Source of the DNA: a virus
DNA: 64,000 bases
Strand: one strand, 5' to 3'
Virus record (IMG/VR): IMGVR_UViG_3300010167_000022
Every line of letters starts with the position of its first letter. The stretch's first letter is position 1. Of the stretch, positions 4,789-30,996 are shown one piece after another. The notes below the pieces were generated by a model. It ran no database searches. It was not told the origin of the DNA and was given only the letters and a program-made list of their open reading frames with translations. Position numbers and translations under genes: made by a program.

Positions 4789-5424
4789 TTATTTGAACAG
4801 ATTTTTATGTTTGTTAGCACGATGTGTTTTCCCATATTCTAAAACTTCATTAATCATTTCTTTAGAATCACCACAATCATGCATAAACCTATTCATATAT
4901 CCTATCATTTTTTTTACAACATATTTTTTATGATTATATGATTGATAACCATATATCTTATTCCATTTTTCTTTAGTGTCCCAGCTATTAAGATGCCCTG
5001 GAATGCTGTACATAGCTCCAAAACAACCAGTATCATCTTCATTTTTATTGTTTGCTCGAAGCAGTGGACATTCATCACAACTCTTATATAAATACTTAAA
5101 TTCTTCACATGCAGCATGACCATTAAGTTCTGCATCTAAATCTGTAAAATCACTTTTTGAAAGCAGTTCTTCAATTAATTCTTTAGCAATATTAATAATG
5201 TCAGATTCTTCTATATTGCATGGAAAAGATATGTAGTTGCTTACATATTCACCATTATTAACAACCCAAAAATATGATTCATTATTTTTATTAAATATTT
5301 CAGACTCATAGTAAACTTGTATTGGACAATCATAGTCTATAGCTTTATGTGGTCTAGTTATTTCATATATTAAACGCATATGCGGATGATTATTTTGCAT
5401 TTGTTCTAATGTTACTGTTCTCAA
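4789..5424 (-). CDS. hypothetical protein
   Basis: ORF 211 aa. Confidence 0.5.
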   Translation of the reverse strand: MRTVTLEQMQNNHPHMRLIYEITRPHKAIDYDCPIQVYYESEIFNKNNESYFWVVNNGEYVSNYISFPCNIEESDIINIAKELIEELLSKSDFTDLDAELNGHAACEEFKYLYKSCDECPLLRANNKNEDDTGCFGAMYSIPGHLNSWDTKEKWNKIYGYQSYNHKKYVVKKMIGYMNRFMHDCGDSKEMINEVLEYGKTHRANKHKNLFK

Positions 5425-5459
5425 ATTATTATCATTCCCTTATTTTATTTTTACATACA

Positions 5460-5753
5460 TTATACAATGTCAATAGTTACAGGTATATATCTACACATAT
5501 ATCCTTTTGGTATGATATTATCAGACTCTTCAAACTCTAGATTTGATACCAATACTAATTGACATTGTTCTTGTAGAATGTCATATATATAGGTAGATCT
5601 ATCTGTGTTTAATATATACATTTCATCACCTTTGCCAACAACTTTTGTTAGTTTGCAAACGGAGTTATTTCTTATATCTTCTAACGCTTTTGCTGCTTTA
5701 ATTTTATACATAATTACATCAGCATTATTTCTTGGTATTAGACTTAAAAACAT
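5460..5753 (-). CDS. hypothetical protein
   Basis: ORF 97 aa. Confidence 0.45.
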   Translation of the reverse strand: MFLSLIPRNNADVIMYKIKAAKALEDIRNNSVCKLTKVVGKGDEMYILNTDRSTYIYDILQEQCQLVLVSNLEFEESDNIIPKGYMCRYIPVTIDIV

Positions 5754-5798
5754 ATTATTATCGCCTCACAATATTTTAATATTGTAAAATATCAGTAT

Positions 5799-6113
5799 TT
5801 ATTTGATTAAACTATTATGTAATAATATATTTATTTCTTTTATAAATTTAATCTCATTATCTTTTTTATTAATAATAAATTCTTTAATCCATATAATTAT
5901 TTCTTCGAGAGATTCTGCAACTGTCAGAACCTCATCTTCAAAGAATGAATTTATTTCATTAAATTTAACACAATCTTTATATTTCCCATTTATTGTGTGA
6001 ATAAAGAATTCAGCCTCACCACGGATTTTACAGCTAGTACAGTCACATATTGATTTTATATATCCAATACTATAATCATTGAATAATAAATACAACTTTT
6101 TATCATATTCCAT
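5799..6113 (-). CDS. hypothetical protein
   Basis: ORF 104 aa. Confidence 0.45.
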   Translation of the reverse strand: MEYDKKLYLLFNDYSIGYIKSICDCTSCKIRGEAEFFIHTINGKYKDCVKFNEINSFFEDEVLTVAESLEEIIIWIKEFIINKKDNEIKFIKEINILLHNSLIK

Positions 6114-6136
6114 AATTATACTATACTCCTTTTATA

Positions 6137-6163
6137 TTTTCATAGAATACTTAATCTATTCAA
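6137..6163. promoter_or_regulatory. PeSL-like palindromic intergenic element (weaker copy)
   Basis: ttttcatagaatacttaatctattcaa. Confidence 0.4.
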
Positions 6164-6165
6164 TT

Positions 6166-6636
6166 CTAATCTAAATCAATAAATTTATATTCAAAAAATG
6201 TAGGAACTTGTTCTATTGATACGTTTGATATTGTAAATTTATCTTCTGCTATGCTATCCCATTTTACTATAGCGTTTTGAATTACTAGTTTAACTTCACG
6301 AAATGATTTATCATCAATACATTCAGTCATGATATCTAATATTACTTCACAATCATCTATTGGTGGTGCTTTAATAAAGTTTTGCAATCTTTCTTCTGCA
6401 TCAATAAATGCTTTTGTAATATTAATATTTAATGGTTTCATTATATCAAATGATAGTAGCCTTAATCTACTATTATATTGTTCTTGAACCCAATGATATT
6501 CTCCTTGTTGTAATACGCATCCTTTTAATCCTGACAAATATGCAAATCTTGATTTACAATGTGGATAAACAATCTCTATATTATTAATTGATCTAAATAC
6601 TAAATCACTTTTACTTATTTTATATTTATAGGACAT
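6166..6636 (-). CDS. hypothetical protein
   Basis: ORF 156 aa. Confidence 0.5.
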   Translation of the reverse strand: MSYKYKISKSDLVFRSINNIEIVYPHCKSRFAYLSGLKGCVLQQGEYHWVQEQYNSRLRLLSFDIMKPLNINITKAFIDAEERLQNFIKAPPIDDCEVILDIMTECIDDKSFREVKLVIQNAIVKWDSIAEDKFTISNVSIEQVPTFFEYKFIDLD

Positions 6637-8623: not shown

Positions 8624-9403
8624 TTAATCTCCGCAATGCTTATATGGGTTATATGGAAAATATGGCATTTTTGTCATCTTGTGAATTCCATCATTATGCA
8701 TTATTTGTATTTTAGCAACTACATCTGGATTAATTTCACCACCACGAAGGTATTTGTCTAATTCTGAATATGTAAATCTAAAATTCTCTTCGTCTGTTCT
8801 GCCAGTAAGACCATCCTCTGGCTTCTTAAATATTAAGTCATAATCAATACCAAGTGCCATTCCTATACGCACAACTTCATTGTTTGTTAGGCTTGCCAGC
8901 GGAGAAAAATCTCCAGCATCATCACCATACTTTGTATTCCACCCAAGATAATTTTCACTAAGATTACACGTATTAGCTACTCTGCCATTTATTTGAGCAG
9001 AAATAGCATATAACGTGGTCATTCTGATTCGAGCCGGGGTATTATTTGTAACAACTGAGTTAAGAAAATTATCATCGTCAGTACTTAATAGCTTATTAGA
9101 TACTTGACGATAAATTTCATTAACGGCATCGTATATATTGATAGTAATATTTTTAATGCCGAAGTATTTACATACTAATTCAGCAACATGCAAATCCCAC
9201 TGGCACCCTTGTGGCATGAGTACTCCGAATACTCTATCAGCGCCTAAAGCTTCAACACATAGCCCAGTAACGATTGTTGAATCTTTGCCGCCTGATATCC
9301 CAATAACAGCTTTGCTATTCATCCCATTTTTATTAAAATAATCTCTAATCCACTGTGCTAAATCGTCTTTAACCTTATCTTCATTAAATTTATACATTAG
9401 CAA
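8624..9403 (-). CDS. nadE: NH3-dependent NAD+ synthetase
   Basis: PP-loop ISGGKDST; RIRMTTLY, TKYGDDAGDFSPL and FTYSELDKYLRG align with E. coli NadE blocks; about 260 aa. Confidence 0.8.
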   Translation of the reverse strand: MLMYKFNEDKVKDDLAQWIRDYFNKNGMNSKAVIGISGGKDSTIVTGLCVEALGADRVFGVLMPQGCQWDLHVAELVCKYFGIKNITINIYDAVNEIYRQVSNKLLSTDDDNFLNSVVTNNTPARIRMTTLYAISAQINGRVANTCNLSENYLGWNTKYGDDAGDFSPLASLTNNEVVRIGMALGIDYDLIFKKPEDGLTGRTDEENFRFTYSELDKYLRGGEINPDVVAKIQIMHNDGIHKMTKMPYFPYNPYKHCGD

Positions 9404-10268
9404 CCCCCATTCTCCGCATTACAAGCCTTTCTGCTAATAACCGCGTCCTAACTATCATAAGAGCCTTACCCATCATATTCTTTCCAGCGCCATTATAAAC
9501 TCCCCAAAAATCATCGCCCCAATTGTTTGTTTCTTCCAAATATTTAAAGCCAGTGTTAAGTAGGAATGCTCTTAAATGTGCATTCTGAGAAAACTTATTA
9601 TATAATATCTCTTGAACAATCTTAACCTTTGTATCTTCCCATTCGTCTTTCATTGGGCATTGGTGACCATATTCTTTTGCCTTTGCAGGAGTAGGCGTAT
9701 TTAAAATCTTCTCTTTCCATTCTGAACAATCTGTTTTGTAATATTGTAATGCATGCTCTGCTGATTTAAATGTTATGCCATCCATTATAAATTTAGTTGT
9801 ATCAAAATTGCTTAATGGCCTATATTTCTCAAAGAATCCTTTAATATAATATTCTGTTACTTCTGTTTTATTATTGAGAACACCTGTATACTTAATAGAG
9901 CTTATGTCAAACATCGTATCAATAGGAATACGAGTCTGGCTTATTACACCTTCTTGTGTAAAATAAACTTGTATATCATCCTTCCAATATTCATTAATCT
10001 CATACTCATATAGATAGTATCCTGCGGTTTCCAATTCGTAGGCATCCATAACAGAGAACCAGAAGTTCATCTGCGACTTATCTTTGGCTCCACTATACCA
10101 ACGTTTCCCGTCTTTTCTGTATTTGTCGTCATGCCCCATTGGCATATCAGCGCAGCGTCCTTCTGTAAGTGTGTGAATAAATCCATTATAAGAGCCATCA
10201 GCGTTATACCACATACCATGTTGATTATCTTTGTGTGCTATACGATATGTTTTAATTGTTTCTTGCAA
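9390..10268 (-). CDS. NADAR (YbiA/DUF1768)-domain protein with an unassigned N-terminal domain of about 140 aa
   Basis: C-terminal FFEKYRPLSNFD...AEHALQYYK...GDDFWGVYNGAGKNMMGKALMIVR resembles NADAR; 14-nt overlap with nadE. Confidence 0.5.
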   Translation of the reverse strand: MQETIKTYRIAHKDNQHGMWYNADGSYNGFIHTLTEGRCADMPMGHDDKYRKDGKRWYSGAKDKSQMNFWFSVMDAYELETAGYYLYEYEINEYWKDDIQVYFTQEGVISQTRIPIDTMFDISSIKYTGVLNNKTEVTEYYIKGFFEKYRPLSNFDTTKFIMDGITFKSAEHALQYYKTDCSEWKEKILNTPTPAKAKEYGHQCPMKDEWEDTKVKIVQEILYNKFSQNAHLRAFLLNTGFKYLEETNNWGDDFWGVYNGAGKNMMGKALMIVRTRLLAERLVMRRMGVANV

Positions 10269-10307
10269 AAATCTTCACATCCTTTCAGTGTATTTATACA
10301 AATCTAA

Positions 10308-11888
10308 TCAAAACTTGCTATTCCATAATCTATTGCGAATAGTAGCGAAATCATCTATATTATATTGTTTGCCATCTACAAATTTCTTAACATATAAATT
10401 CCCTTCAAAATTAATAGCTTCTTCATATGTCAATTCATCTGTATATGTAATCTCGCCCAATGAATCATAATGTGCTGCAAAACAGCCTTTTTGTGATGCT
10501 TTAGCGCTATCCGTTTTTGGATTCTTTTGAATAGCAACTTCTATACCATCCATAATACAGCTAGTAGCTTTTATTGCATAACCACGGGTGTCCCGTGTGA
10601 CATATTGATAGCTTACTGAACCAATCCCAAAAAATATATTTTCTACAGATATTTTCATTTCAACACAACGTTTAAGAATTTTTTCTTGCCGTTCTCTTGT
10701 TATAGCATCTGCGTAAATCATTCTTATTTGTGAAGGAAGAACATCATACCCTTTTTTGTTTGTACTTACTCCAAATATTTTCTTTAATACTCGAAGACTG
10801 CCAATTTTTTCATACCATAAATCAGCAAGTGAATCACCACATGTAATCTTAATTGGATCGCCAGAATCGGCACGGATTACTAATGCGCCTTGTCTATTAC
10901 ATATATCATCTATTAACTTTGGTAGTATCCATGTAAGTACGCCCCAATAGTCATATGTGTCGGATACATAAGACAATGCGCCTTCTAGCTGTACATCTGT
11001 AATAAGGTATTTAATAACACACATTTCAGCGACTAGCTTAATATCAACTGGGCTACCATCTTCACGTTTAGAATTTTTATATTTATCCCATGTTATGCCT
11101 TTGTATTCTCCACCAGATAGTAACATATTTTCAAATTCTGCTATAAGTTGACATACAATGCTATGCTCTAAAGATGGAGTAGCCATATTAGTTAAGTCTT
11201 TTTCTATATCTGCGTTATAATATTTTTCTAAGAAATCTGCTGATCCCATTGTTGCTGATTTAGCAAACGATAATAAATGCCCTCCACTTGATGCCATGGC
11301 TGCTGATTCCATTTCAGCCATTCCACGCAAGCTAAAATCACTAATCATATATTTTGTTATATTTGTATCTTCGCATGTTATATCTACATATTTTTGTTGT
11401 AATGTTCTTCTATCATGCCCAGTTGTAGCAGATGTTGGAGGCATCCAGTTATGCGTTGACCATAAATCTTCAAGATACTGAGGTAGCCAACCAAAATCAG
11501 GATGTGTATTTCTAATCCAATGGTCTGGAACATTAACTGGGCAAAGTGTTCCTTCTGGCAACCCCCATATTTCGATTGGAAGATAGCCAAGCTCATAAAG
11601 TTTTCTAAATTTAGAAAAATCAGAATATCGTGGGCTAAAACATATAGAAACATTTCTTACATGTTTTTTCTCTAAATCATCTACATCCTTATAAAAGAAA
11701 TTATTATCAAACCAATCAATCATATATTGTTTGATTCTTGCTTGTTGCCCCCATATAACTGTATTTTTAGCTTCTTGCTGATACTTGTTATATCTTCCTG
11801 TCCAACCAGTAAATACATGGCTTACGCTTTTAGGTTGTAAAAAAGGATGGCAAATTTTATATCCGTCCACAATACCATATAGCCCCAT
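10308..11888 (-). CDS. nicotinamide phosphoribosyltransferase family (NAMPT/NadV, or Namat-like)
   Basis: 526 aa, size and overall sequence character of NAMPT; adjacent to the Prs-like gene. Confidence 0.7.
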   Translation of the reverse strand: MGLYGIVDGYKICHPFLQPKSVSHVFTGWTGRYNKYQQEAKNTVIWGQQARIKQYMIDWFDNNFFYKDVDDLEKKHVRNVSICFSPRYSDFSKFRKLYELGYLPIEIWGLPEGTLCPVNVPDHWIRNTHPDFGWLPQYLEDLWSTHNWMPPTSATTGHDRRTLQQKYVDITCEDTNITKYMISDFSLRGMAEMESAAMASSGGHLLSFAKSATMGSADFLEKYYNADIEKDLTNMATPSLEHSIVCQLIAEFENMLLSGGEYKGITWDKYKNSKREDGSPVDIKLVAEMCVIKYLITDVQLEGALSYVSDTYDYWGVLTWILPKLIDDICNRQGALVIRADSGDPIKITCGDSLADLWYEKIGSLRVLKKIFGVSTNKKGYDVLPSQIRMIYADAITRERQEKILKRCVEMKISVENIFFGIGSVSYQYVTRDTRGYAIKATSCIMDGIEVAIQKNPKTDSAKASQKGCFAAHYDSLGEITYTDELTYEEAINFEGNLYVKKFVDGKQYNIDDFATIRNRLWNSKF

Positions 11889-11901
11889 TTATTAACTCCT
11901 T

Positions 11902-12708
11902 TTAGTTATTTTGTAATATCTCAATTAACGGATGTTCCTCAGTGAATATAGAACGTGTTGTATATATCTTTTCTAATAATCCGCTATTAATAAGTTCACC
12001 ATTTAATATTGAATTCTCACAATGTGTGATGTATAAATATATCTTTCCAACACCCAGATTTTTTAGCTTCTTTGCTGCATATAGAAATGTTCCACCATAA
12101 CTGCAAATATCATCTGTTATTAAAATTGTTTTTCCTGTTAAGTTATGCTTTTTAGCACCTAGAACTTCTGTATCAAGTATATCTCCAGTATCCCAATTCC
12201 TATCCTTATACCCACAAATATTAGGATGCTTAATAAGATTTTCTAGTCGTTTCTTGCATCCAGAATCCGGGTAATAAAGCAAATCAGGAGTAGTCTTGTC
12301 AATAACTATATTCACAAATTTTAAATATCTATTAATATCTATATATACATTATTTATAATAGCTGGTGCTACTGGGGAATGTGGGTCAAGTATATATACA
12401 CGATCAAATCCTAATTCATTAATAACTCTTGCAAAGTATTTTAATGTAAATATATCATCTGGTTTTTCTATTCTATCTAACCTCGCATTTGGTGTATAGT
12501 CAAGATGAAGTGTGATTCGTGCATTTGGATTCTTTTCTTTTATATGCCAAACCAAATTTTGAAGAACGATTTGCTCTGTAAGGGTTTCGAAATCCCATGT
12601 CAACCTATATTGAATATTATTTATATCTTCATCTACCTTAAATCGCATTAGTAATGTCCCATCGGGGAAGAACCCGTATATATATTCTTCCCCATTCACT
12701 TTTATCAT
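11902..12708 (-). CDS. ribose-phosphate pyrophosphokinase homologue (Prs or ADPR-PP synthetase Adps-like)
   Basis: RITLHLDYTPNARLDR (Prs flexible-loop motif), VYILDPHS, PRPP-binding loop KTILITDDICSYGGT. Confidence 0.7.
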   Translation of the reverse strand: MIKVNGEEYIYGFFPDGTLLMRFKVDEDINNIQYRLTWDFETLTEQIVLQNLVWHIKEKNPNARITLHLDYTPNARLDRIEKPDDIFTLKYFARVINELGFDRVYILDPHSPVAPAIINNVYIDINRYLKFVNIVIDKTTPDLLYYPDSGCKKRLENLIKHPNICGYKDRNWDTGDILDTEVLGAKKHNLTGKTILITDDICSYGGTFLYAAKKLKNLGVGKIYLYITHCENSILNGELINSGLLEKIYTTRSIFTEEHPLIEILQNN

Positions 12709-12742
12709 TTACTTATCACATCCTATCACTTAATATTGCAAT

Positions 12743-13279
12743 CTATTGCTCGTCGTTAATAATATTTACTTGGCAACAACGCAATACTGTTAATGCCGCA
12801 AGATGGCTTTCTTCACTTACACATGCACAGCATGACGCATCTACGGTGATTTTTGTTTCTGGATACATTGCTTTAAGAATAAGTGCATTGGATACTACGC
12901 ATATGCCAGTGCATAAACCACATATTTCAATTTCATCTGCTGACATAAGCAGACTGTCAGTACAATCATTATCATTCCATCCCAAGTATCCAAATGTTGA
13001 TTTGTCGATTTTAATATCCATTTTATCTTCTAATCCGTCATATATATCCCATCCACCTGTACCTATCAAACAATGTGGGACAGGAAGATATTGCCCCTCT
13101 TGTGTATTCATATAATCGTCATTGTGCGTATCTCGTGTAAAAATAATGCTATTTTTATTTGAGCGATAATTATTAATTTTTTCTATTACATTAGGAGTAA
13201 TCTTCTGTGCCTGATCGCTCCCTAATGCCCCTGTTACAAAATCCTCTTGAACATCTACTACTATAAGAACCTTACTCAT
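12743..13279 (-). CDS. nicotinamidase / isochorismatase-family hydrolase (PncA-like)
   Basis: MSKVLIVVDVQEDF start; catalytic-Cys region ICGLCTGICV; 178 aa. Confidence 0.65.
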   Translation of the reverse strand: MSKVLIVVDVQEDFVTGALGSDQAQKITPNVIEKINNYRSNKNSIIFTRDTHNDDYMNTQEGQYLPVPHCLIGTGGWDIYDGLEDKMDIKIDKSTFGYLGWNDNDCTDSLLMSADEIEICGLCTGICVVSNALILKAMYPETKITVDASCCACVSEESHLAALTVLRCCQVNIINDEQ

Positions 13280-13323: not shown

Positions 13324-13647
13324 TTATTTTTCTAATTTTTGTTTGCCCGTTATACTATATCTATTGTATAATGACAAGTAGCTAATCCTTATATAATTAA
13401 AAAAACATTTTAGCATAACAATTCCAAATGCTAAATATGCAGATAAAAAGAATGATAAATATAAAGGCCATACTAAAACAACATAAAATGTATCTTGTTT
13501 AAAAACGGCATCATCTTCATAACTAATATCATTATTTTCTTCTTTAGAGTATATTATATCTAAATTGCCAAAATCTGACCATTTTATAGTCTCCCCAAAT
13601 AATAATGTCATATATCCGATTAATAAATATAAAACTATAAATGCCAT
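13324..13647 (-). CDS. small membrane protein
   Basis: ORF 107 aa with hydrophobic helices. Confidence 0.5.
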   Translation of the reverse strand: MAFIVLYLLIGYMTLLFGETIKWSDFGNLDIIYSKEENNDISYEDDAVFKQDTFYVVLVWPLYLSFFLSAYLAFGIVMLKCFFNYIRISYLSLYNRYSITGKQKLEK

Positions 13648-13701
13648 TTTATTCCATGTCTCCTTTCTAATATTTTTTGCTTTAGGATGTGCAATAAAAA
13701 C

Positions 13702-13730
13702 ATTATACTGTATCTATTGTATATTGTCAA
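13702..13730 (-). promoter_or_regulatory. perfect consensus sigma70 promoter TTGACA-N17-TATAAT
   Basis: revcomp reads acTTGACAatatacaatagatacagTATAATg; drives 13324..13647. Confidence 0.6.
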
Positions 13731-14020
13731 GTATATTATTTCTATGTGTTTGTATGCTCAATTCAGGACATATAATTTTATGTCATCAAGTGAATACACA
13801 ACCATTTATTATGCCGGGCAGCTTGTTTAATTATTAGGAAACTCCTATAGATATAAACAATTAACGGACTTGTTCTTCTAATATTTATCTAATAAATGTA
13901 TTGAAAATATATTTTTGTCGGTTACAGTTTAAAAGACTACAAAGCGCTTAAAACCCCTGAAATACAGCGTCTTATAAGAGATTAACAAGGATTGATTAAT
14001 CTTAAATAAGATATGTATTA

Positions 14021-14067
14021 CAGGACTTTGACTCCTGCACTCGAAGGTTCAAATCCTTCCAGCTCAG
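14021..14067 (+). other. 3' fragment of tRNA-Gln(UUG): anticodon arm, variable loop, T-arm and 3' acceptor strand; putative attP core
   Basis: CAGGA-cTTTGac-TCCTG anticodon arm; GAAGG-TTCAAAT-CCTTC T-arm; CAGCTCA acceptor 3' strand; no matching 5' half upstream; lies next to int. Confidence 0.55.
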
Positions 14068-14073
14068 TTCATG

Positions 14074-14110
14074 AAAAACCCCGTAGATATCATGTTTGCG
14101 GGGTTTTTTA
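14074..14110. terminator. bidirectional rho-independent terminator
   Basis: aaaaaCCCCG-N15-CGGGGtttttt; A-run before and T-run after the GC hairpin. Confidence 0.6.
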
Positions 14111-14186
14111 TTCCCCGTAATTACACATAAAAAACCGCTTTCTAATACTTTTCTAATAAACTGCAAATACCATTCTATTCCATTTA

Positions 14187-15329
14187 CTAGCCTTGCAAAA
14201 CGTTGGTTATACCATTTAACATCATTTTTTTAGCGGATGCCTCTAATTTGGCGTAAAGGTTCATAGTCGTTCCTATATCTCCATGTCCTAACCATGCTTG
14301 AATATCCTTTAAATTATAACCAAGCGCTAAAAGTAAAGAGGCTGAAGAGTGCCGCAAATCATGTAGCCGGATATGTCTCATATTATTTTTTTTCAACAGT
14401 TTCCTAAAAGCTACAGATATATAGTTTGGGTTAATTAATTCCCCAACATCATTTACACATATATACCCATCATAATCATAGCAATATGACATCCCAAAAA
14501 TTTCCTTATTGATTTCCTGCTTGGATTTTAGCTCTGTTAAAAACGCCATAAATGTATCATCTAGTGGCATTGTCCGATAGCTAGATTTTGTTTTTAAGGT
14601 GTCGGAAAATTCTAATCTATATTTGCCATCATCATTGATAGGGACTACCTTATGACCTATGAAAAATGTTCTGTTGACCCAATCTACTGCACTCCACTTT
14701 AATCCAACAATTTCAGAACGTCGCAGACCAAAATATATGGCGAACATCAAAGGAGTTTCGATTGGTGAACATTTAATAACCCCCAAGAGAGTTGCAATTT
14801 CATCCTTGTTATAGAAATCGCCTATAAATTTCTGCTTTTTTGGCCTTTCTACAAAATCAGCAGGATTCTCTTTTATTGCACGTGTTTTTTTCGCATATTG
14901 TAGGGCAGTCCTTATAAGCGTAAGGTGTTTTATAACAGTGTTAGGACTTACAAACTTTAACTTATAAGTACAATAGGCTTGGATATGTTTGGTTGTTAAA
15001 TCTAGTAAACATATTCCTTTTTGATTAAAATACGGATGTATTTGTTTTAATAATCGCTTATACCCCGCATAAGTTATAGCTTCTACATTTGCCCGGTGCA
15101 TTTCAAGCCAGTCTGTAAGAAAATCACAGAATAGAATCCTAGTATCTTGCACATTCTGAACATCGCTATATTCTTCAATTTTTTGTTTTAGGAATTGATC
15201 TGCTTTTTTCTTATTCCCTATAATGGTATAACCTGTGCTAATCCATTTCTGGGTTTGTTTCCCACCGCTGTTAAAACATATAACAGCATAATACTTATTG
15301 TTCTTTTTTTGCAAGCTTCCAGTCGTCAC
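14187..15329 (-). CDS. int: tyrosine integrase (GTG start)
   Basis: C-terminal HDLRHSSASLLLALGYNLKDIQAWLGHGDIGTTMNLYAK (HxxR...Y); AAGGAGGG RBS. Confidence 0.85.
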   Translation of the reverse strand: MTTGSLQKKNNKYYAVICFNSGGKQTQKWISTGYTIIGNKKKADQFLKQKIEEYSDVQNVQDTRILFCDFLTDWLEMHRANVEAITYAGYKRLLKQIHPYFNQKGICLLDLTTKHIQAYCTYKLKFVSPNTVIKHLTLIRTALQYAKKTRAIKENPADFVERPKKQKFIGDFYNKDEIATLLGVIKCSPIETPLMFAIYFGLRRSEIVGLKWSAVDWVNRTFFIGHKVVPINDDGKYRLEFSDTLKTKSSYRTMPLDDTFMAFLTELKSKQEINKEIFGMSYCYDYDGYICVNDVGELINPNYISVAFRKLLKKNNMRHIRLHDLRHSSASLLLALGYNLKDIQAWLGHGDIGTTMNLYAKLEASAKKMMLNGITNVLQG

Positions 15330-15411: not shown

Positions 15412-15615
15412 TCACAGATTTTCCAACAAATAGGCGAGTACACAAATCTTAGGTATAATATATGTCTTGCCTATTCGCTTGTGCTTTATTTGCCCGGTTT
15501 TAAGTAATTCATATGCTTTATTACGTCCGATTAATAGCATTTGTTGAAGCTGTAACACATTAAGACAATCAGGGTAGTTATTAAACATTTCATTATTTTT
15601 TAATTGAGCATTCAT
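15412..15615 (-). CDS. xis: excisionase / HTH DNA-binding protein (Xis-like); start placed at the internal ATG after a GAAGGAG RBS
   Basis: LQLQQMLLIGRNKAYELLKTGQIKHKRIGKTYIIPK helix-turn-helix; the track's N-terminal extension reads through the upstream hairpin. Confidence 0.55.
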   Translation of the reverse strand: MNAQLKNNEMFNNYPDCLNVLQLQQMLLIGRNKAYELLKTGQIKHKRIGKTYIIPKICVLAYLLENL

Positions 15616-15629
15616 AATTTCGCTCCTTC

Positions 15630-15666
15630 GTGAACTACCCATCCCCTTAAGGGGATGGGATTTCTC
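15630..15666 (-). promoter_or_regulatory. GC-rich hairpin leader element (9-bp stem CCCATCCCC / GGGGATGGG) with TAGTTCAC flank
   Basis: gtgaactacccatccccttaaggggatgggatttctc, immediately 5' of the xis RBS on the mRNA. Confidence 0.35.
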
Positions 15667-15705
15667 TACGTTGGTTTTAAAAAGCATCTATTCTTTATAT
15701 CAATC

Positions 15706-16842: not shown

Positions 16843-17154
16843 TCACTCCTTCTGTACTATATTAATAAATTTATAGTTATCACTATAATTGTTATATTGC
16901 ATAACAAGTATATAATCTCCAATTTCTACAATACGTGGACTTACAACTGCTTGGTATATTACATTAACAACTATTCTATTTCCATCTATATCAGCTATAA
17001 ATGCTATTGGCTTATACTTGTTATCAATATCAATTCTTGTAACTATAGCAATTTGCATTGCGTTTTCATCATAATCATCGGATTTATCACACCAATTTGT
17101 AGATAGTACAATAATAAATGCTATTACTAAAACAATCTTAAAAAACTCCATCAT
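16843..17154 (-). CDS. small secreted protein (signal peptide)
   Basis: ORF 103 aa; MMEFFKIVLVIAFIIVLSTNWC. Confidence 0.45.
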   Translation of the reverse strand: MMEFFKIVLVIAFIIVLSTNWCDKSDDYDENAMQIAIVTRIDIDNKYKPIAFIADIDGNRIVVNVIYQAVVSPRIVEIGDYILVMQYNNYSDNYKFINIVQKE

Positions 17155-18538
17155 TATTCTCCATCACAAGATTATATTTGTATACAACAAATGCAATTAA
17201 ACTCTCTTTGTTATTTTTGTCTGGATTATCAATTACATATTCTAAGCAATTATTTAATATCTCTCCCAGTATCTTTCCTTGTACAAATCCAATGTTGATA
17301 AGGTCATATCCATTAATAGCTAAATCTCGTATTGTGAAAGCTTCGTTGTTAAATAATATGTCATGCCATATTGTTTTAATCTCAGAAACCTTACAAACCC
17401 ATTTATCATATTCGCCAGATCCCCACCTATGTGCCTTTTTATCAATTAGCTGGAATGCGAACAATTTTATGCATAAATCATGTCCTAACTTATTCAACAA
17501 CTTCTTTGCCACATTGCGTGTTGGCTGCAGCACAAAATCATGTGCTTCAACAAGTTTTAAAACTATTTCAATTGTTTTGTTGTCAAATCGCATCCGATGC
17601 ATAATCTCTTGTGCCATTTTAACAGAATATATTTCATGTCCATAGTAGTGATTAGTTAACCGCTTATCATCAAACACACGCGCTTTAAGTTTCCCTATAT
17701 CATGTAGGAGTATTGTCATTATCAACTCAATATCGTCTGTATAGCCAAAAAATATCATATCCATAGTATGAGTAAATACATCCGTATAATGCCATATGTT
17801 ATTATGTGTTATTTGAGCAAGCCCTATAAACTCCGGTATAATACGTTTAATTATATACTCAATCATACCGCGAAGTTTAGGATAATGATAAGTATCTTTG
17901 TCTAACTTATTTATAGCACATAATATTTTTACTATCTCTGCATTTTTACGTTCCATTGAGATATTTTTAAGATTATCACCACACTCAAAAATCGCATTAA
18001 TGACTTCTTTTGAAATATCAAAATCTAAAGTAGTAGCAAATCTAATTGCTCTCATTATACGTAATGCATTTTCATTAAACCTGTTCTCTGCGTTCCCAAC
18101 AGTCTTTATTATTTTATTTTTTAAATCAGATTGTCCGCCAAATAAATCAATAATCCCATATTCATCATTATATGCCATAGCATTAATAGAAAAATCCCGG
18201 CGGCATAAATCATCTTTAATAGTATTTGAAAAATTTACTGCATTTGGTCTCCTTCCATCTCCATATGACCCATCAGCACGATAAGTGGTTATTTCATATG
18301 ATACTTTATTTAATAACACAGTCATTGTTCCATACTTCTCACCAGTTGGTATTAAGTAATATGAACTAAAAATTTCTTTTATTTCATTAGGCATTGCGTT
18401 TGTGGCTATATCCCAGTCTTTAGGCACTACTCCCAATAACGAATCTCTAACACATCCGCCTACAATATACGCTTCAAATCCATTATTATTAAGTTCGCAC
18501 ATTATATTTCGAACATCTATTGGAAGATTGATTTCCAA
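17138..18538 (-). CDS. cca: tRNA nucleotidyltransferase (CCA-adding enzyme) with C-terminal HD domain
   Basis: GGCVRDSLLG head motif near the N-terminus; LLHDIGK HD motif; 466 aa. Confidence 0.8.
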   Translation of the reverse strand: MEINLPIDVRNIMCELNNNGFEAYIVGGCVRDSLLGVVPKDWDIATNAMPNEIKEIFSSYYLIPTGEKYGTMTVLLNKVSYEITTYRADGSYGDGRRPNAVNFSNTIKDDLCRRDFSINAMAYNDEYGIIDLFGGQSDLKNKIIKTVGNAENRFNENALRIMRAIRFATTLDFDISKEVINAIFECGDNLKNISMERKNAEIVKILCAINKLDKDTYHYPKLRGMIEYIIKRIIPEFIGLAQITHNNIWHYTDVFTHTMDMIFFGYTDDIELIMTILLHDIGKLKARVFDDKRLTNHYYGHEIYSVKMAQEIMHRMRFDNKTIEIVLKLVEAHDFVLQPTRNVAKKLLNKLGHDLCIKLFAFQLIDKKAHRWGSGEYDKWVCKVSEIKTIWHDILFNNEAFTIRDLAINGYDLINIGFVQGKILGEILNNCLEYVIDNPDKNNKESLIAFVVYKYNLVMENNDGVF

Positions 18539-20920: not shown

Positions 20921-20948
20921 TTTTAATAGAATGCCTGTTCTATTCAGA
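20921..20948. promoter_or_regulatory. PeSL-like palindromic intergenic element
   Basis: ttttaatagaatgcctgttctattcaga; overlaps the stop codon of the upstream gene. Confidence 0.55.
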
Positions 20949-21602
20949 CTTGTATGACTTGTAGACTCTATTATTTAACCAGATAGCAATAGAGTCAAGG
21001 TTCTGAAATACTTTGCCGCCATTCTCTATAACCATTATTGCAACAGCCCTAAGAGACTTAATTTCATCATTATCAAACGTAAGTCCATCATCTTCTTCTA
21101 AAAAACAAAACAATGTTTTTTCTGGTCGCTTATTGCTGTCATCTACTACTTCAGCAATTGAAAATACACCATGCATTTTTGGAGTGATCACATATAAGCA
21201 ATAGTCGCACTCTTCACGCTGTTTGCATTCTTCTACCATACACTCTGGAGTCCAATCATCAACAACAGGGTTAAAATAGCCTATTTTTAACATGCTTATT
21301 AGTAAATCTCTCCAAGTGCTATTATTACATGTACCGCCTAAGAATACTTTTTTCTTTTTCGCATCTTTTCTTTCAAATAAATATTCAGGCCATAAAAGTG
21401 TCCCACCATCTTCTTTTATCTCATACACTATACGATTCATCTTTTTTATTACTCTGCTAATTGTTACAATTTTTCCTTTGAATTTCCCCATTGGTGGGAC
21501 ACAATGTTTTGTTCCACCATCAATCTCATAAGTGAAATCTTTTCTTATTATTAAAACATCTCCAATATTATATAATGGAGTTAATATTGTTCCATCATTC
21601 AT
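20940..21602 (-). CDS. nucleoside 2-deoxyribosyltransferase-like (Rcl/DUF4406-fold) protein with an N-terminal beta domain
   Basis: KKVFLGGTCNNSTW...CDYCLYVITPKMHGVFSIAEVVDD resembles the NDT family core with its catalytic Glu. Confidence 0.35.
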   Translation of the reverse strand: MNDGTILTPLYNIGDVLIIRKDFTYEIDGGTKHCVPPMGKFKGKIVTISRVIKKMNRIVYEIKEDGGTLLWPEYLFERKDAKKKKVFLGGTCNNSTWRDLLISMLKIGYFNPVVDDWTPECMVEECKQREECDYCLYVITPKMHGVFSIAEVVDDSNKRPEKTLFCFLEEDDGLTFDNDEIKSLRAVAIMVIENGGKVFQNLDSIAIWLNNRVYKSYKSE

Positions 21603-21617
21603 TATGATAACGCCCTT

Positions 21618-22931
21618 TTAATTATAATCTATTATTTCTTGTGCTTCTTCAATATCAGGTGATGTAGCTGAGTCTTTAATAATTCCCTCAATAACTTTGA
21701 AGTGCCAGTTTTTATGCTTAAATGCTGTAAATCTTTCTCTGTTTTCAATTCTAACAACTATGCCTTCTTTTATATGTGTTTTACCAATTGGATCGAACCC
21801 ATCACAATATTTATTTGCATGCTCCATAAGATCTTCAAATGTTGTATAAGTAAAACGTTCATATGTAGGACAATACCTAACCCCCATTTGTTCGCAACGA
21901 AGCTTCACTAATCCATATGGATACTCAACTACATAGCCATCCTCATTTGTAATTGTCATTCTATATACATAGGTTTGGCTCTCACCGTCATCACAACCAT
22001 ATGAAAAACGTGTCTTGTCACCATATTGTTTAATGAATTCTTTATCATTAACTTTTTTATTCGAGCAATCTGCCATTATAGGAGTGTTGGGGGAAACATA
22101 TCCAACAACCTCATAATAAACAGTTTCACCTTTTTGAAGTTTGCCAACAAATCTGTCATGATGCCGTTGTCGAAAAGCATTACTTCCATAGTAGCCACCA
22201 TTTAAGTCTTTTAGCACAACTCTTCTTGTTCCGCATACATATTCCCATGATTTTTTAATTTTAGGTAACAATCTTAACGCTTTAAATATTTTAACTAACC
22301 AATATGGCAAATATTTTCTTGTCTCTTTTAATGTATAAGATGTGCGTTGTGAGGTTCCATGCATCTTTAAAGTAATTTCACACTGATCTCCTTCTTTAAA
22401 AGCGTTTTTATTATATACAAGCTGTGATGTATCATAATGTTCCATAAATAAGGGAAAACTTGTTTTATCATATATTTTTTTAGATTTCTCTTTATTTTTC
22501 CCCACACTTTGTCTACGATGTTTGCCCATAGGAATATACTTTTCACAAATTAAAAGTCCATTTAATATAGTTATAGAATCTCCTTCATTAAGTATAGAAA
22601 CATCTGTAAATTTATTAAGTGAAATCAATGGCATAAATAAACCATCGCTCATTTCACCTCTTAGTTTTATAGCTTTAATATTTCGCTTTTCAGGATCAAG
22701 AAATCCACCTATTTGATTTCCATCTGCATCTTTATTACGTAGAAGATTATTTGCCGCGCAATACTCATTGCATAGTTTACCATCTATTGGGAAATAAATT
22801 CCTAATTCATCTTCTGATATATTTGTACTTACTATAACGTTGTTTCCAAAACACTCTCCAATCAGGAGTTTATCAGCATTTGTATGTCTTCTTAAGTTTT
22901 TTATTCTTGTTATATATGCGCAATAAGCCAT
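21618..22931 (-). CDS. ATP-dependent RNA ligase (Rnl2/Rnl5-like, with an N-terminal extension)
   Basis: nucleotidyltransferase motif I LKMHGTSQR (KxHGxx) at about aa 190; 437 aa. Confidence 0.6.
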   Translation of the reverse strand: MAYCAYITRIKNLRRHTNADKLLIGECFGNNVIVSTNISEDELGIYFPIDGKLCNEYCAANNLLRNKDADGNQIGGFLDPEKRNIKAIKLRGEMSDGLFMPLISLNKFTDVSILNEGDSITILNGLLICEKYIPMGKHRRQSVGKNKEKSKKIYDKTSFPLFMEHYDTSQLVYNKNAFKEGDQCEITLKMHGTSQRTSYTLKETRKYLPYWLVKIFKALRLLPKIKKSWEYVCGTRRVVLKDLNGGYYGSNAFRQRHHDRFVGKLQKGETVYYEVVGYVSPNTPIMADCSNKKVNDKEFIKQYGDKTRFSYGCDDGESQTYVYRMTITNEDGYVVEYPYGLVKLRCEQMGVRYCPTYERFTYTTFEDLMEHANKYCDGFDPIGKTHIKEGIVVRIENRERFTAFKHKNWHFKVIEGIIKDSATSPDIEEAQEIIDYN

Positions 22932-28223: not shown

Positions 28224-29279
28224 TTAAGATGTGTAACCAAATGCATACTTCCAATCGCTATAATCTTTCCTCCATCTCAATAATTTTAACATCAACTCTC
28301 CTTTGTCATTATACTCAACACGAAGATGATATGCAAGATATTTTGCAATTTCATATTCATAATTATCAATATCAGATGTAATTTTTACACCATTTATTTC
28401 TCCTTTTAGCTCACACTGATATAATCTATGAAATACACCTGATATGCGAACAGTAGAAGGAGATAGCTGTTCGCTTGATTTTGAAGTCTTATATATAACA
28501 CGTATAATACGATTTAATGAAGATAACGGAATCTGTGTTTGCTGTGTTCTTGCATTTTGCCTTAATTGTGGTCGTATTAAGTAGTCGTTATCTATTAGAG
28601 GAATCATTATATATTCTTCTGTTGTTGATTTTGTTGATCTTTCCGCCTGTGCATTTTTCTTTTCTATTCCATCAACATCTTGAAATCTAAGCCACAAATC
28701 AACTGTCTCGTCAGATAACTTTACAATATATCCACCCCCCAGCGTTATTGAATTTGTATTTAAATCAAGATCGGATTTTTTTAAATCTACAATATCATTG
28801 AATGTTAACCCGTCAAAAACCAAATGTAATACTAAACTATTTCGCATAGATGCATTAGGATAATTAACTGTATCAAGTCCATTAAAAATAATAGTTTTAA
28901 GCTGTTCATAATCCCCTAGCATCTTACTAGTGATTGTGCTTTTTTCTTTTAATGCATCTACAGTCATTATGTCAAAAGCCTTTTTGTCTTTTGTAATCCC
29001 CTTTACTAACAAAGCCCACGATGCATATCCTCTCATTGATGCTAAAAAATGAGATATTGATAAATCTCGTCTTATCCCTAGTGATAAAAATGCTATTTTT
29101 AATTCATCGTAAGTCATAAATATTATATCTGTACCATTATCGCCAGTTGAAACCTCTGCATCGTATAGTCGTTTAAAATAGTTTTCCAATGCAATTTTAT
29201 TGCTTTCCTTTTTTTCAAAATCAATGTACTCTTCTTTCAAATTCCTGTTAAACATTAATGTCCTAACTTGTTTACCCAC
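28224..29279 (-). CDS. hypothetical protein, possibly a degenerate tyrosine-recombinase-like fold
   Basis: 351 aa; RNSLVLHLVFDGLTFNDIVDLKKSDLD resembles recombinase box I; ...GVFHRLYQ...YLAYH; very uncertain. Confidence 0.45.
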   Translation of the reverse strand: MGKQVRTLMFNRNLKEEYIDFEKKESNKIALENYFKRLYDAEVSTGDNGTDIIFMTYDELKIAFLSLGIRRDLSISHFLASMRGYASWALLVKGITKDKKAFDIMTVDALKEKSTITSKMLGDYEQLKTIIFNGLDTVNYPNASMRNSLVLHLVFDGLTFNDIVDLKKSDLDLNTNSITLGGGYIVKLSDETVDLWLRFQDVDGIEKKNAQAERSTKSTTEEYIMIPLIDNDYLIRPQLRQNARTQQTQIPLSSLNRIIRVIYKTSKSSEQLSPSTVRISGVFHRLYQCELKGEINGVKITSDIDNYEYEIAKYLAYHLRVEYNDKGELMLKLLRWRKDYSDWKYAFGYTS

Positions 29280-29799: not shown

Positions 29800-30996
29800 C
29801 TAATATATACCATTATTACTTAATCCACTAAAAATATTACTTAGAAACTCATTACTATTATTCCCATGCTTTCCTTCCAGTGCATCAATAATACTTTTAT
29901 CAAATACAGGATAAATATTTTTACTTCTGAAATAATTAATTACTCTTTCTACTTCATCATCGCTGATATATGCCCCTTGTATCCTCATAGGATTCATATC
30001 ATTTTCTCTTTTAAATAGCATATCACCCTTTCCAAGTAATGATTCAGCACCTGTCCTACCTAGTGCAACCATAGAACTTTGTGGTTTATCTACTGCAAAT
30101 ACTATTTTAGTCTGCAAGTTATCTTTTATGCGGGAAGTTATAATATCAGCAGATGGTCTTTGTGTTGCTACTATTAAATGAATCCCAGCAGCTCTACTTA
30201 GCTGAGATATTTTAATTATTGCATCTTCTACTTTTTTTGATGATGACATTATAAGCTGAGATAATTCATCAATTATAACTACTATCCTATATAACTTTTT
30301 GTCATTCATATTATTCTTTTCTAATATCTCATTGTATCTATCTATATTTCTTATAGGAATATTATTTAGCTTTGCTATCTGATTTAATAATTCATATCTT
30401 CTATTTGTTTCTTCGCAAAGCCATTCTAGCATTATTTCTGCTTTTTTTTCATCTGTTATAACTGGGGCCAATAGATGTGGAATATTTTCATAAGGTGTTA
30501 ATTCCACTTTCTTTGGGTCTAATAATACAAGCCGTAATTCTTTTACTGGTTCCATTATTAAACTTGATATTAATACATTTATAAATACAGACTTGCCAGA
30601 ACCTGATGCCCCAGCGATTAATATGTTTCTTAACTCCGGTAGGCTTCCATATATTTTTTCCCCGCATTGACTTTCTCCAATTGCAAACTTTAGCGGAGCT
30701 GTTGAGCTTTTGTATTCTGAAGATCTTATAATATCTCCAATTCTCAATATCTCATTAGATTTATTAGAAACTTCTATTCCAATTGAATTATTAGCCATCT
30801 GCACAATTTGTACAGTTTCCGCTTTCAACCTTATACGTATATCTTCTTTAGCTCTTTTTAGTTTTGCCGATTTTTCGCCGTCTACCATATGAAGTTCGTA
30901 TGTTGTTGTTACACGACCTTGTATATCTCCAATTACAATTGCATTTATACCAAGCACTTTTAATATATTTTGTACTTGTGCATATTTATCAATCAT
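29800..30996 (-). CDS. FtsK/SpoIIIE-family DNA translocase motor ATPase
   Basis: Walker A LIAGASGSGKSV; Walker B VVIIDELSQL; LIVATQRPSADIITSRIKDN...GRTGAESLLGKGDML matches the FtsK motor core. Confidence 0.75.
   Translation of the reverse strand: MIDKYAQVQNILKVLGINAIVIGDIQGRVTTTYELHMVDGEKSAKLKRAKEDIRIRLKAETVQIVQMANNSIGIEVSNKSNEILRIGDIIRSSEYKSSTAPLKFAIGESQCGEKIYGSLPELRNILIAGASGSGKSVFINVLISSLIMEPVKELRLVLLDPKKVELTPYENIPHLLAPVITDEKKAEIMLEWLCEETNRRYELLNQIAKLNNIPIRNIDRYNEILEKNNMNDKKLYRIVVIIDELSQLIMSSSKKVEDAIIKISQLSRAAGIHLIVATQRPSADIITSRIKDNLQTKIVFAVDKPQSSMVALGRTGAESLLGKGDMLFKRENDMNPMRIQGAYISDDEVERVINYFRSKNIYPVFDKSIIDALEGKHGNNSNEFLSNIFSGLSNNGIY

Follow-up and report, generated by a model that had tools for sequence, protein, structure and literature searches.

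A five-gene phage island, most likely an undescribed NAD+ reconstitution variant that runs via nicotinic acid

Depleting NAD+ is one of the means that bacteria use most often against phages, which are known to answer it with NARP1 to NARP3. What, then, might a phage do with an operon that brings together a nicotinamidase, a "NAMPT" and an NAD synthetase, a combination that is paradoxical at first sight, along with a Prs homologue and a NADAR-domain protein? The operon lies in a 64,000-nt stretch of the virus record IMGVR_UViG_3300010167_000022 (hereafter the window, at its full length). Our answer is that it most likely rebuilds NAD+ from the breakdown products via nicotinic acid, as a so far undescribed variant of a pathway that phages are known to use against immunity.

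Genes and setting of the island

The island consists of five minus-strand ORFs running from 13279 down to 8624, exactly where a sequence-only reading of this DNA had placed them, and each domain call made in that reading was upheld by Pfam, PHROG and NCBIfam profiles. The genes had also been called translationally coupled. This stands for the NADAR gene and NadE, whose overlap is 14 nt (8 nt if NadE starts at the ATG at 9397), but not for the remaining three junctions: here the genes lie 34, 13 and 39 nt apart, and a separate Shine-Dalgarno sequence comes after every gap; the 13-nt gap is the one between the adjoining Adps-type and Namat-family genes. A candidate promoter of the unit (13702..13730, minus strand; TTGACA, 17-nt spacer, TATAAT; 12 of 12 consensus bases) is a consensus match only, and promoter-like sites in the region are not above chance (52 found against 47.5 expected). 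It lies upstream of an ORF call for a 107-aa predicted membrane protein (13324..13647, minus strand), which had no match in Pfam or PHROG and with which the transcription unit may begin.

The PncA-like nicotinamidase (12743..13279, minus strand; 178 aa; Pfam Isochorismatase, 1e-22) has the complete set of catalytic residues (D9, K93, C127) and metal ligands (D50, H52, H69), and its best PDB matches are nicotinamidases/pyrazinamidases (1ILW, 3S2S, 3PL1). Because its scores against the NCBIfam equivalogs are far under the cut-offs, we assign it to a divergent nicotinamidase subfamily. Homologues were found in 7 of 50,697 phage records, all from the human gut, compared with 1,456 records for Adps homologues. 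In five gut-phage contigs with a PncA homologue, the flanks retrieved contain no NARP1 genes, so PncA can also act alone. At the other end of the island, the NH3-dependent NAD synthetase NadE (8624..9403, minus strand; 259 aa, or 257 aa from ATG 9397; Pfam NAD_synthase, 1e-47) has a single synthetase domain with the P-loop SGGKDS at residues 37-42 and passes TIGR00552 (5e-47; 160.2 bits against a 63.65-bit cut-off). Its top PDB matches are the Francisella enzyme 3FIU (102.6 bits), the Francisella NadE being described in the literature as an NMN synthetase, and then P. horikoshii 2E18 (96.5 bits).

The Prs homologue (11902..12708, minus strand; 268 aa; phrog_619, 5e-62) is a predicted ADPR-pyrophosphate synthetase of the Adps type. 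It is 38% identical to the validated SPbetaL1 Adps (E=6e-52) and 23% identical to E. coli Prs (E=1e-9), and its K168 occupies the position of the catalytic K162 of SPbetaL1 Adps. It falls under the cut-off of every cellular Prs model (TIGR01251, 71.7 bits against 113), and the best cellular Prs in the PDB reached only 46 bits. By these identities and profile scores it is Adps-like, and we group it with phage Adps rather than with cellular Prs. Validated Adps yields no product in a Prs-type assay.

The sequence-only reading had seen no adenylyltransferase and had taken this to be expected if the Prs homologue were an ADPR-PP synthetase. Both points hold: the homologue is Adps-like, and a profile search of the 80 other ORFs in the window found no member of the NMNAT, NadR or PnuC families, which fits a NARP1-type chemistry. 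Of the 162-kb contig, ~97 kb lies outside the window, and the ~10 kb of this that was inspected likewise gave no match to CTP_transf_like or NadR.

An integrase and an excisionase-like gene lie just upstream of the island, and an RNA ligase and a CCA-adding enzyme are encoded in the window. The "macro-like fragment" reported at the window end is real: it makes up the C-terminal half of a 157-aa protein, which at 26.6 bits exceeds the Pfam Macro cut-off of 22. That protein, ~50 kb away, does not belong to the island. The element comes from the gut and is probably a large phage, as is suggested by the SPbeta YorH-like and DnaE-like genes immediately beyond the window; that no structural genes were seen counts against this.

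The transferase pocket and its partner genes

The 526-aa transferase (10308..11888, minus strand; NAPRTase, 4e-23; phrog_448, 1e-132) matches the Namat crystal structure 9W5X with 319 bits and NAMPTs with 130-134 bits. By sequence it belongs with Namat, with its pyridine pocket remodelled. The catalytic residues F185, R188, H242, R339 and D341 are retained, whereas S183, K210, A212 and S239 stand at the positions of SPbetaL1 H187, G213, D215 and A242. Ala occurs at the D215 position in 120/120 of the nearest homologues, and the enzyme is referred to here as Ala-type. The adenine-clamp motif, defined as GSxPhixPhixPhiTRD (PMC12774641), reads GSVSYQYVTRD at residues 423-433, so that its length, its Phi residues and the Tyr at position 7 fit, but position 3, which is Tyr or Phe in most Ala-type relatives, is Val. 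At clamp position F392 the window protein has Val (not aromatic).

When Ala-type (n=137) and Asp-type (n=73) sequences were compared over ~490 positions, only 187, 215 and 242 discriminated perfectly and 213 nearly so. The three changes that separate the types fully (H187G/S, D215A, A242S) all lie in or beside the nicotinamide site; every ADPR-contacting and clamp residue is kept in both types. In the Namat-NAM crystal, D215 and A242 are listed among the residues of the nicotinamide pocket. Human NAMPT has H191, G217, D219 and A244 at the four positions; there, D219S switches substrate affinity and mutations at H191, G217 and A244 block inhibitor binding, and in human NAPRT the D219 position is occupied by Ser. 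We propose from this pocket that the Ala-type Namat is a nicotinate ADPR-transferase. It could still use nicotinamide, because the D215A mutant of SPbetaL1 Namat, whose activity is down 8.1-fold, keeps ~12% with nicotinamide.

The pocket change tracks the neighbouring genes. Viral loci carry both PncA and NadE in 13/13 Ala-type cases and 0/72 Asp/Glu-type cases, a co-occurrence that may reflect few evolutionary events, given a neighbour-joining tree that has no support values and on which the Ala-type sequences fall into three lineages of a basal grade. Two further complete sets (loci L092 and L099) bring the Ala-type phage contigs with NadE to 15/15. Among 74 genomic Ala/Ser-type loci, PncA was present in 67, Adps in 63, NrtR in 55 and NadE in 43, NadE being not adjacent in ~40% of chromosomal operons. 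The five genomic Asp-type loci have neither PncA nor NadE, and for viral and genomic Asp/Glu-type loci together the count with either gene is 0/77. The four core genes are kept together in at least six different gene orders, and fusion protein clusters link the components: Adps+PncA (3), PncA+NadE (2), NADAR+PncA (7) and PncA+NrtR (4). The earlier suggestions that PncA and NadE imply a deamidated route, and that the island is a functional NAD+ unit, are both supported, and the clade-wide pocket change with its perfect co-variation, together with the fusions, takes the evidence further than that reading had proposed.

On the chromosomes of ~55 Clostridium species the order is nrtR-adps-pncA-namat(Ala)-nadE. 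These NrtR-regulated copies mean that the pathway can be housekeeping; NrtR is a repressor, and ADPR is its best effector. The phage island has no NrtR. NadD or NMNAT was found in none of the Ala-type operons examined, nor in the window. In other loci, an RNA ligase adjoins Adps and a Macro protein sits in the NADAR slot (L099), Thg1 and a kinase lie nearby (L008), or Tpt1/KptA is directly 3' of NadE (L182).

A predicted route through nicotinic acid and its alternatives

In the scheme that we propose, the starting point would be the cleavage of NAD+ to ADP-ribose and nicotinamide, for instance by a NADase that the host uses in defence. Then (i) PncA would convert nicotinamide to nicotinate, (ii) Adps would use ATP to convert ADP-ribose to ADPR-PP, (iii) the Ala-type Namat would join nicotinate and ADPR-PP directly into NaAD, which would make an adenylyltransferase unneeded, and (iv) NadE would turn NaAD into NAD+. 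The NADAR fusion, in a variable accessory slot, would most likely hydrolyse an N-glycosidic NAD- or ADPR-derived compound and feed ADP-ribose and/or nicotinamide into the pathway. The phage copy, having no NrtR, would probably keep NAD+ up during infection. The sequences themselves show the gene identities, their family placement, the changed pocket, the co-occurrence and the fusions; from them we infer every substrate and product of the scheme, and from the NARP1 precedent only the anti-defence role. Points that speak against the scheme are the Francisella match of NadE, the Val at clamp position F392, the PncA-only gut-phage contigs and the chromosomal operons in which NadE is not adjacent.

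That the island is such a "deamidated NARP1" of four enzymes plus one accessory enzyme seems to us reasonably probable. With somewhat less assurance, we also lean towards the broader reading that it represents a fourth NAD+ reconstitution pathway. Built on a new reaction (nicotinate and ADPR-PP to deamido-NAD by the Ala-type Namat, with PncA, Adps and NadE), this pathway would serve anti-defence in human-gut phages and ADPR-inducible, NrtR-controlled housekeeping in Clostridium and relatives, and the NADAR protein with its ART-like module would be a new feeder class. In the literature, we found no paper describing a nicotinate-routed variant. If such a variant exists, NAD biochemistry would gain a new enzymatic reaction, the paradoxical operons would be accounted for, and ADP-ribose to NAD+ recycling would be an ordinary regulated pathway in a major group of gut and soil anaerobes, beyond phages. 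The comparison also gives a re-annotation rule for "NAMPT" genes (Gly/Ser187, Ala/Ser215, Ser242 versus His187, Asp215, Ala242), and the domain fusions connect NADAR and the widespread, uncharacterised phage module PF26820 to NAD salvage.

The same chemistry could have a mainly metabolic role, recycling the ADPR and nicotinamide released by NAD-consuming enzymes of phage or host such as Tpt1/KptA RNA repair, NAD-dependent ligase or ADP-ribosyltransferases. The NrtR-regulated chromosomal core operon of the ~55 Clostridium species and the RNA-repair genes nearby in the window, L099, L008 and L182 make this a possibility worth keeping, if not a likely one, because canonical NARP1 counters Thoeris, DSR1/2, SIR2-HerA and SEFIR by experiment and the phage copies, lacking NrtR, would not be ADPR-gated. 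The metabolic and counter-defence roles are compatible with each other.

A different alternative concerns the NADAR fusion protein (9390-10268, minus strand; Pfam NADAR, 3e-26 at aa 147-277). Its NADAR domain (9438..9830, minus strand) passes TIGR02464 (78.8 bits against a 73.7-bit cut-off), and its best PDB match is E. coli YbiA (2B3W, 4e-16). The catalytic residues are intact (E171 and K178, seven apart), and the last-strand residue is Glu (E246); D253, W255 and W210 are also present, and H202 and K214 take the phosphate-binding positions. By its last-strand Glu we class the domain as YbiA-type, not DarG1 (Asp) or AdfN/gp30.3 (His). The N-terminal domain, previously given as 140 aa, measures ~122 aa instead (9903..10268, minus strand; Pfam PF26820, Phage_T4_Y00F). 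It has weak but consistent ADP-ribosyltransferase-like (also RES-like) fold matches and a conserved R/S/E-like set (R9, S72, E106).

The sequence-only reading had given this protein a DarT-reversal role, and it might be a stand-alone anti-DarT1 factor like T4 AdfN that clears guanine ADP-ribose, its operon position being incidental. Its catalytic Glu and Lys are in place, the NADAR subfamilies tested in vitro, YbiA included, all hydrolyse guanine-ADPr, and phage NADARs of several clades counter DarTG1. We nevertheless consider this role unlikely, and as originally stated it was not supported: E. coli YbiA does not rescue cells from DarT1 toxicity, the domain is of the YbiA/Glu type, it is fused to the same PncA subfamily in seven clusters, and it recurs in the same slot of two NrtR-regulated Clostridium operons. 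Furthermore, the NADAR gene is missing from the nearest relatives, the slot is held in other lineages by a Macro protein or a small DFDDT-motif protein, and PF26820-type modules elsewhere are joined to NrtR-like, NadE and NAPRT proteins. Because of the YbiA type, the missing gene in the nearest relatives, the shared slot and the NADAR+PncA fusions, we favour a putative metabolic feeder role over DarT reversal.

Alternatively, the island could boost the Preiss-Handler pathway, with PRPP from the Prs-like enzyme, NaMN from the Ala-type protein acting as an NAPRT analogue, host NadD and phage NadE, and no ADPR-PP chemistry. The pocket change would suit nicotinate with either ribosyl donor, SPbetaL1 Namat accepts PRPP as well in vitro, clamp position 392 is Val in the window enzyme, and all hosts have NadD. 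We find this reading doubtful, given that the Prs-like protein groups with Adps, which in its validated form gave nothing in a Prs-type assay, that Ala-type enzymes throughout retain the adenine-clamp motif and every ADPR contact, that the operons include NadE and never NadD whatever their layout, and that the chromosomal copies are under NrtR, whose best effector is ADPR. About as doubtful is an ordinary NARP1 with unrelated salvage genes, in which the Ala-type enzyme makes NAD+ from nicotinamide and ADPR-PP while PncA and NadE boost host nicotinate salvage. The residual nicotinamide activity of D215A Namat, the PncA-only gut-phage contigs, and NadE alone in cyanophages and jumbo phages are consistent with it. 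However, PncA would then compete with Namat for nicotinamide, the coupling is perfect and two-sided (either gene in 0/77 Asp/Glu-type loci, PncA in 13/13 viral and 67/74 genomic Ala/Ser-type loci), and the Adps-PncA fusion would place nicotinate and ADPR-PP production on one polypeptide.

That the island is a prophage defence or toxin-antitoxin system, for instance an ART-like toxin module with a NADAR antitoxin, strikes us as very improbable, for all that the fold matches and R/S/E-like set of the N-terminal module, the known ART-NADAR pairs (DarT1-NADAR, YarT-YbiA) and the integrase and excisionase-like gene just upstream would suit it.

Comparison with known systems

The proposed nicotinate-routed pathway is closest to NARP1 (Adps and Namat; Osterman et al. 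2024; Namat structures 9W5X/9W5W). The island shares with it the adjacent Adps-clade and Namat-clade genes, the Adps catalytic Lys, the Namat catalytic Phe, Arg, His and Asp, the clamp motif (in the window protein with Val at its third position) and the lack of an adenylyltransferase. It differs in its pocket (H187 to S/G, G213 to K/R, D215 to A, A242 to S), in the nicotinamidase and NAD synthetase that accompany the Ala-type transferase, and in the predicted transferase product, NaAD instead of NAD+, at the cost of one more ATP.

Some NARP1 operons include Macro Adpp or RyDEP, which turn other NAD-derived products into ADPR. Like NARP1-AP (Adps, the Macro phosphatase Adpp and Namat) and RyDEP NARP1, the island has an extra, putatively ADP-ribose-processing enzyme in the operon, and the L099 relative has a Macro protein in the NADAR slot; unlike them, the accessory enzyme of the island is a predicted YbiA-type NADAR N-glycosidase with an ART-like-fold module. 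The NADAR fold and the spacing of seven residues between the catalytic Glu and Lys are shared with AdfN (T4 gp30.3) and DarG1, whereas the last-strand residue (Glu, in place of His in AdfN and Asp in DarG1), the N-terminal module and the location in an NAD-salvage operon are not.

NrtR-controlled Preiss-Handler operons, such as nrtR-pncA-pncB-nadD-nadE of C. acetobutylicum, resemble the island in having PncA first and NadE last and, by the proposed scheme, NaAD as the penultimate compound, and the chromosomal relatives of the island are NrtR-controlled as well. In place of PncB and NadD, however, the island has Adps and the Ala-type Namat, and its ribosyl-adenylate part would come from recycled ADP-ribose, not from PRPP and ATP. 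Finally, NARP2 (Nampt and Nmnat, phage KVP40) and NARP3 (PnuC and NadR-like) are, like the island, phage-encoded means of NAD+ restoration, but NMNAT, NadR and PnuC are not in the window, and the transferase of the island groups with Namat, not with the KVP40-type Nampt.

The island and its NARP1-like gene pair

The five ORFs of the island are co-directional on the minus strand and have the coordinates given in the sequence-only reading, and domain and profile matches bore out the families assigned to them there. Family searches identified an isochorismatase/nicotinamidase-like protein (PncA; 12743-13279), a Prs-like protein (Adps; 11902-12708), a NAMPT-family protein (Namat, Ala-type; 10308-11888), a NADAR fusion whose domain at residues 147-277 lies behind an N-terminal extension (9390-10268), and an NH3-dependent NAD synthetase (NadE; 8624-9403). 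Translational coupling, which had been proposed for the whole island, holds for the NADAR/NadE overlap only: the other junctions are gaps of 13-39 nt, and each has its own ribosome-binding site. A candidate promoter with a perfect consensus (13730-13702) is located 5' of PncA, ahead of an intervening 107-aa membrane ORF.

The Prs homologue proved to be Adps-like, as had been suspected: identity to the Adps of SPbetaL1, whose activity has been validated biochemically, is 38% (E=6e-52), as against 23% (E=1e-9) to E. coli Prs. The catalytic Lys is retained, Adps-specific motifs are shared with SPbetaL1 Adps, and none of the cellular Prs models gives a score that reaches its cut-off. Against the SPbetaL1 Namat crystal structures (9W5X/9W5W) the NAMPT-like protein reaches 319 bits, compared with ~130 bits for true NAMPTs, and its sequence GSVSYQYVTRD fits the Namat clamp motif apart from Val at position 3, where most Ala-type relatives have Tyr or Phe. 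The absence of an adenylyltransferase, noted earlier by eye, extends to the window, where neither NMNAT nor NadR nor PnuC was found among the 80 other ORFs. Together, the Adps- and Namat-like scores, the clamp motif and the lack of NMNAT, NadR and PnuC group the gene pair with NARP1 and not NARP2 or NARP3; NARP3 (PnuC + NadR) was set aside as unrelated. PADLOC excluded a known defence system.

A tyrosine integrase gene (14187-15329) and an HTH_17 excisionase-like gene (15412-15687) are immediately upstream, which puts the island in a typical moron position. The 540-nt non-coding gap between these genes and the island (13648-14186) could contain attP. A second integrase-like gene is found at 28224-29279. 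Also near the island is an RNA-repair/nucleotide set (17138-18538, 20940-21602 and 21618-22931), whose members are a CCA-adding tRNA nucleotidyltransferase with an HD domain, a nucleoside 2-deoxyribosyltransferase-like protein and an RNA ligase; the Ala-type operons of loci L099, L008 and L182 are likewise flanked by RNA-repair genes (RNA ligase, Thg1, a kinase, Tpt1). GmrSD_N restriction-endonuclease domains occur in two window ORFs (best E=4e-12).

The window comes from a metagenomic contig of 162 kb, whose most likely source is a large temperate Firmicute phage. Phage structural genes were not found in the window, and a PHROG "terminase" match was rejected because it is only an FtsK/SpoIIIE-like ATPase (29800-30996; phrog_1358, 2e-77). 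Assignment to a phage is based on SPbeta YorH-like and DnaE-type polymerase genes just beyond the window, where a PD-(D/E)XK gene is also found, and on Phass-1-like relatives. The closest deposited relative of the NAMPT-like gene is in the human-gut phage Phass-1, where the nicotinamidase, Prs and NAMPT genes are ordered as they are here; megablast of the island region against phage records gave no match. Phass-1 belongs to a code-15 clade. With TAG as the stop codon of 33 of 109 ORFs, an alternative genetic code is unlikely here.

An altered nicotinamide pocket

Asp215 of Namat hydrogen-bonds nicotinamide, and D215A cuts Namat activity 8.1-fold. This residue aligns with Ala in the window protein, and Ala occupies the position in all 120 of the 120 closest database homologues. 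When 137 Ala-type and 73 Asp/Glu-type sequences were aligned, no more than three of ~490 positions separated the two types perfectly: H187 (to G/S), D215 (to A) and A242 (to S). The next-best discriminating position is G213 (to R/K). D215 and A242 are named nicotinamide-pocket residues of the Namat-NAM crystal, and the reported ADP-ribose-contacting residues and the clamp are all conserved in both types. We infer a change in the pocket region that senses the pyridine substituent, with the ADPR-PP site left as it was.

Namat positions 187, 213, 215 and 242 correspond to H191, G217, D219 and A244 of human NAMPT, in which D219S switches substrate affinity and mutations at H191, G217 and A244 block inhibitor binding. 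The residue equivalent to D219 is Ser in human NAPRT. There is also a third pocket type with Ser in place of Ala at D215 (G/V/S/S and S/K/S/S at 187/213/215/242; loci L165, L174 and L178); its carriers are MAG contigs of Nomurabacteria and Treponema that also encode PncA, Adps and NadE.

Co-occurrence with PncA and NadE and a proposed nicotinate-routed pathway

Among 85 loci from viral contigs and Phass-1, PncA and NadE are both within 10 kb of Namat in 13 of 13 Ala-type loci and in none of 72 Asp/Glu-type loci. The viral loci came from an alignment-based scan of IMG/VR, used after a single-protein scan had found only 4 distant loci. All four genes are also present in two more phage-like contigs, L092 and L099 (MT835544). 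A survey of bacteria and archaea at one genome per species gave 79 loci. The 74 of Ala-type or its Ser-type variant carry PncA in 67 cases, Adps in 63, the NrtR regulator in 55 and NadE in 43, with misses mostly at contig ends; of the 5 Asp-type loci, none carries PncA or NadE. The arrangement nrtR-adps-pncA-namat(Ala), then usually nadE, recurs in ~55 named Clostridium species and in Oscillospiraceae and Desulfovibrionaceae MAGs; examples among the chromosomal operons (L103-L181) are Clostridium carboxidivorans P7 (L118), C. beijerinckii (L129) and C. tertium (L163).

The four genes stay together across lineages despite differing gene order. Conservation at identities of 30-67%, in many gene orders and in several fusions speaks for function. 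In a neighbor-joining tree without support values, Ala-type sequences form three lineages in a basal grade, which gave no resolution between a single and a repeated Asp-to-Ala change, so that few independent events may underlie the co-occurrence.

In the nearest relative (L182, with a 67% identical Namat; coordinates 5018-6397 and 8757-9356), Adps and PncA are one 459-aa polypeptide, with an NrtR-like gene upstream and Namat(Ala), NadE and Tpt1/KptA downstream. The last of these, an RNA 2'-phosphotransferase encoded directly after NadE, uses up NAD+ and yields nicotinamide and ADP-ribose cyclic phosphate. Searches with the window's own proteins as queries recovered fusion clusters joining the PncA subfamily to Adps (3), NadE (2), NADAR (7) and NrtR-type Nudix regulators (4). 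The subfamily is also often fused to PRiA4_ORF3 (PF07929), one such cluster having 1,178 member sequences, and to RNase H, HD and other domains (P0284, P0294, P0305, P0315-P0318 and other clusters).

We propose a four-enzyme scheme, with all substrates and products inferred, in which (i) PncA would form nicotinate, (ii) Adps would form ADPR-PP, (iii) the Ala-type Namat would combine the two into NaAD and (iv) NadE would amidate NaAD to NAD+. Use of nicotinate would explain why a nicotinamidase is always present, since a nicotinamide-using Namat would be starved by it. The scheme would likewise account for the presence of NadE and the constant absence of NadD. For NadE, sequence did not separate a NaAD-specific enzyme from an NMN-synthetase type. 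ADPR is the best NrtR effector. By analogy with NARP1, the island may serve in anti-defence.

PncA homologues were found in 7 of 50,697 deposited phage records, all from uncultured human-gut phages; Adps homologues were found in 1,456 of them. That PncA implies an Ala-type Namat was rejected, because 5 of the 7 records are without NARP1 genes in the flanks available. In these five contigs (L097, L098, L100, L101 and L102; MT835512, MT837495, MT835706, MT836195 and MT835572), which encode a close PncA homologue (41-54% identity), Adps, Namat and NadE were all absent from the available flanks, so phage nicotinamidase may also serve a separate use.

A nicotinate-routed NARP1 variant was not described in the literature reached, which spans few subscription journals. 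The NARP1-AP, RyDEP, NARP3 and Namat-structure papers make no mention of PncA, NadE or a non-Asp pocket, and among the operons given in the 2008 NrtR survey are prs-nadV and pncA-pncB-nadD-nadE, but not nrtR-adps-pncA-namat(Ala)-nadE.

The NADAR fusion and other accessory proteins

The N-terminal domain of the NADAR protein is a distinct module, as had been proposed, but measures ~122 aa and not 140. It matches PF26820 (Phage_T4_Y00F; 9903-10268, minus strand). The family is widespread and uncharacterised: an exhaustive HMMER search returned 283 homologous clusters (homologues P0121-P0270), where a word-indexed search with a 140-aa query gave none; about half are stand-alone and the rest fused. 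Fusion to NAD-salvage proteins recurs: the identifiable partner is NUDIX+NrtR-WHD in the closest homologue, and NadE, NAPRTase or NADAR in others. A stand-alone copy sits inside an ordinary Asp-type NARP1 operon (L041:1266-1607). Fold searches with a confident AF2 model gave weak, though consistent, matches to ADP-ribosyltransferase/RES-like folds; BFVD fold matches were to uncharacterised proteins only.

The nearest relatives lack the NADAR fusion protein. In L099 the slot between Namat and NadE is taken by a Macro-domain protein, and in Phass-1 by a small protein with a DFDDT motif. The latter is a 139-aa, HAD-phosphatase-like protein with no Pfam match (L001:9560-9982, Phass-1; L014:11560-11982). 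Four Clostridium operons contain a YbiA-type NADAR gene, which in two of them sits in this same slot. A 157-aa Macro-domain protein is encoded from 63767 to the window end at 64000, which cuts the gene, and on to ~64240 outside (L093:595-1068). The macro-like fragment of the sequence-only reading is thus genuine (Pfam Macro, 26.6 bits against a 22-bit cut-off), but it is ~50 kb away from the NAD island. Since Macro phosphatases (Adpp) are known NARP1 partners, this protein might by analogy act on ADPR-1''-phosphate.

The NADAR domain aligns best with E. coli YbiA, has the catalytic Glu171 and Lys178, and carries on its last strand Glu246, which defines the YbiA subfamily; in DarG1, in contrast, this position is Asp, and in phage AdfN it is His. 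Removal of ADP-ribose from DNA, the activity first suggested for the fusion, is a possible function, as all NADAR subfamilies catalyse it in vitro. The evidence favours a feeder that would release ADPR and/or nicotinamide from an N-glycosidic compound, because of the NADAR-PncA fusions, the slot exchange, the Clostridium operons and the precedent of Macro (Adpp) and RyDEP, published accessory enzymes of NARP1 operons, which make ADPR from other NAD-derived products.
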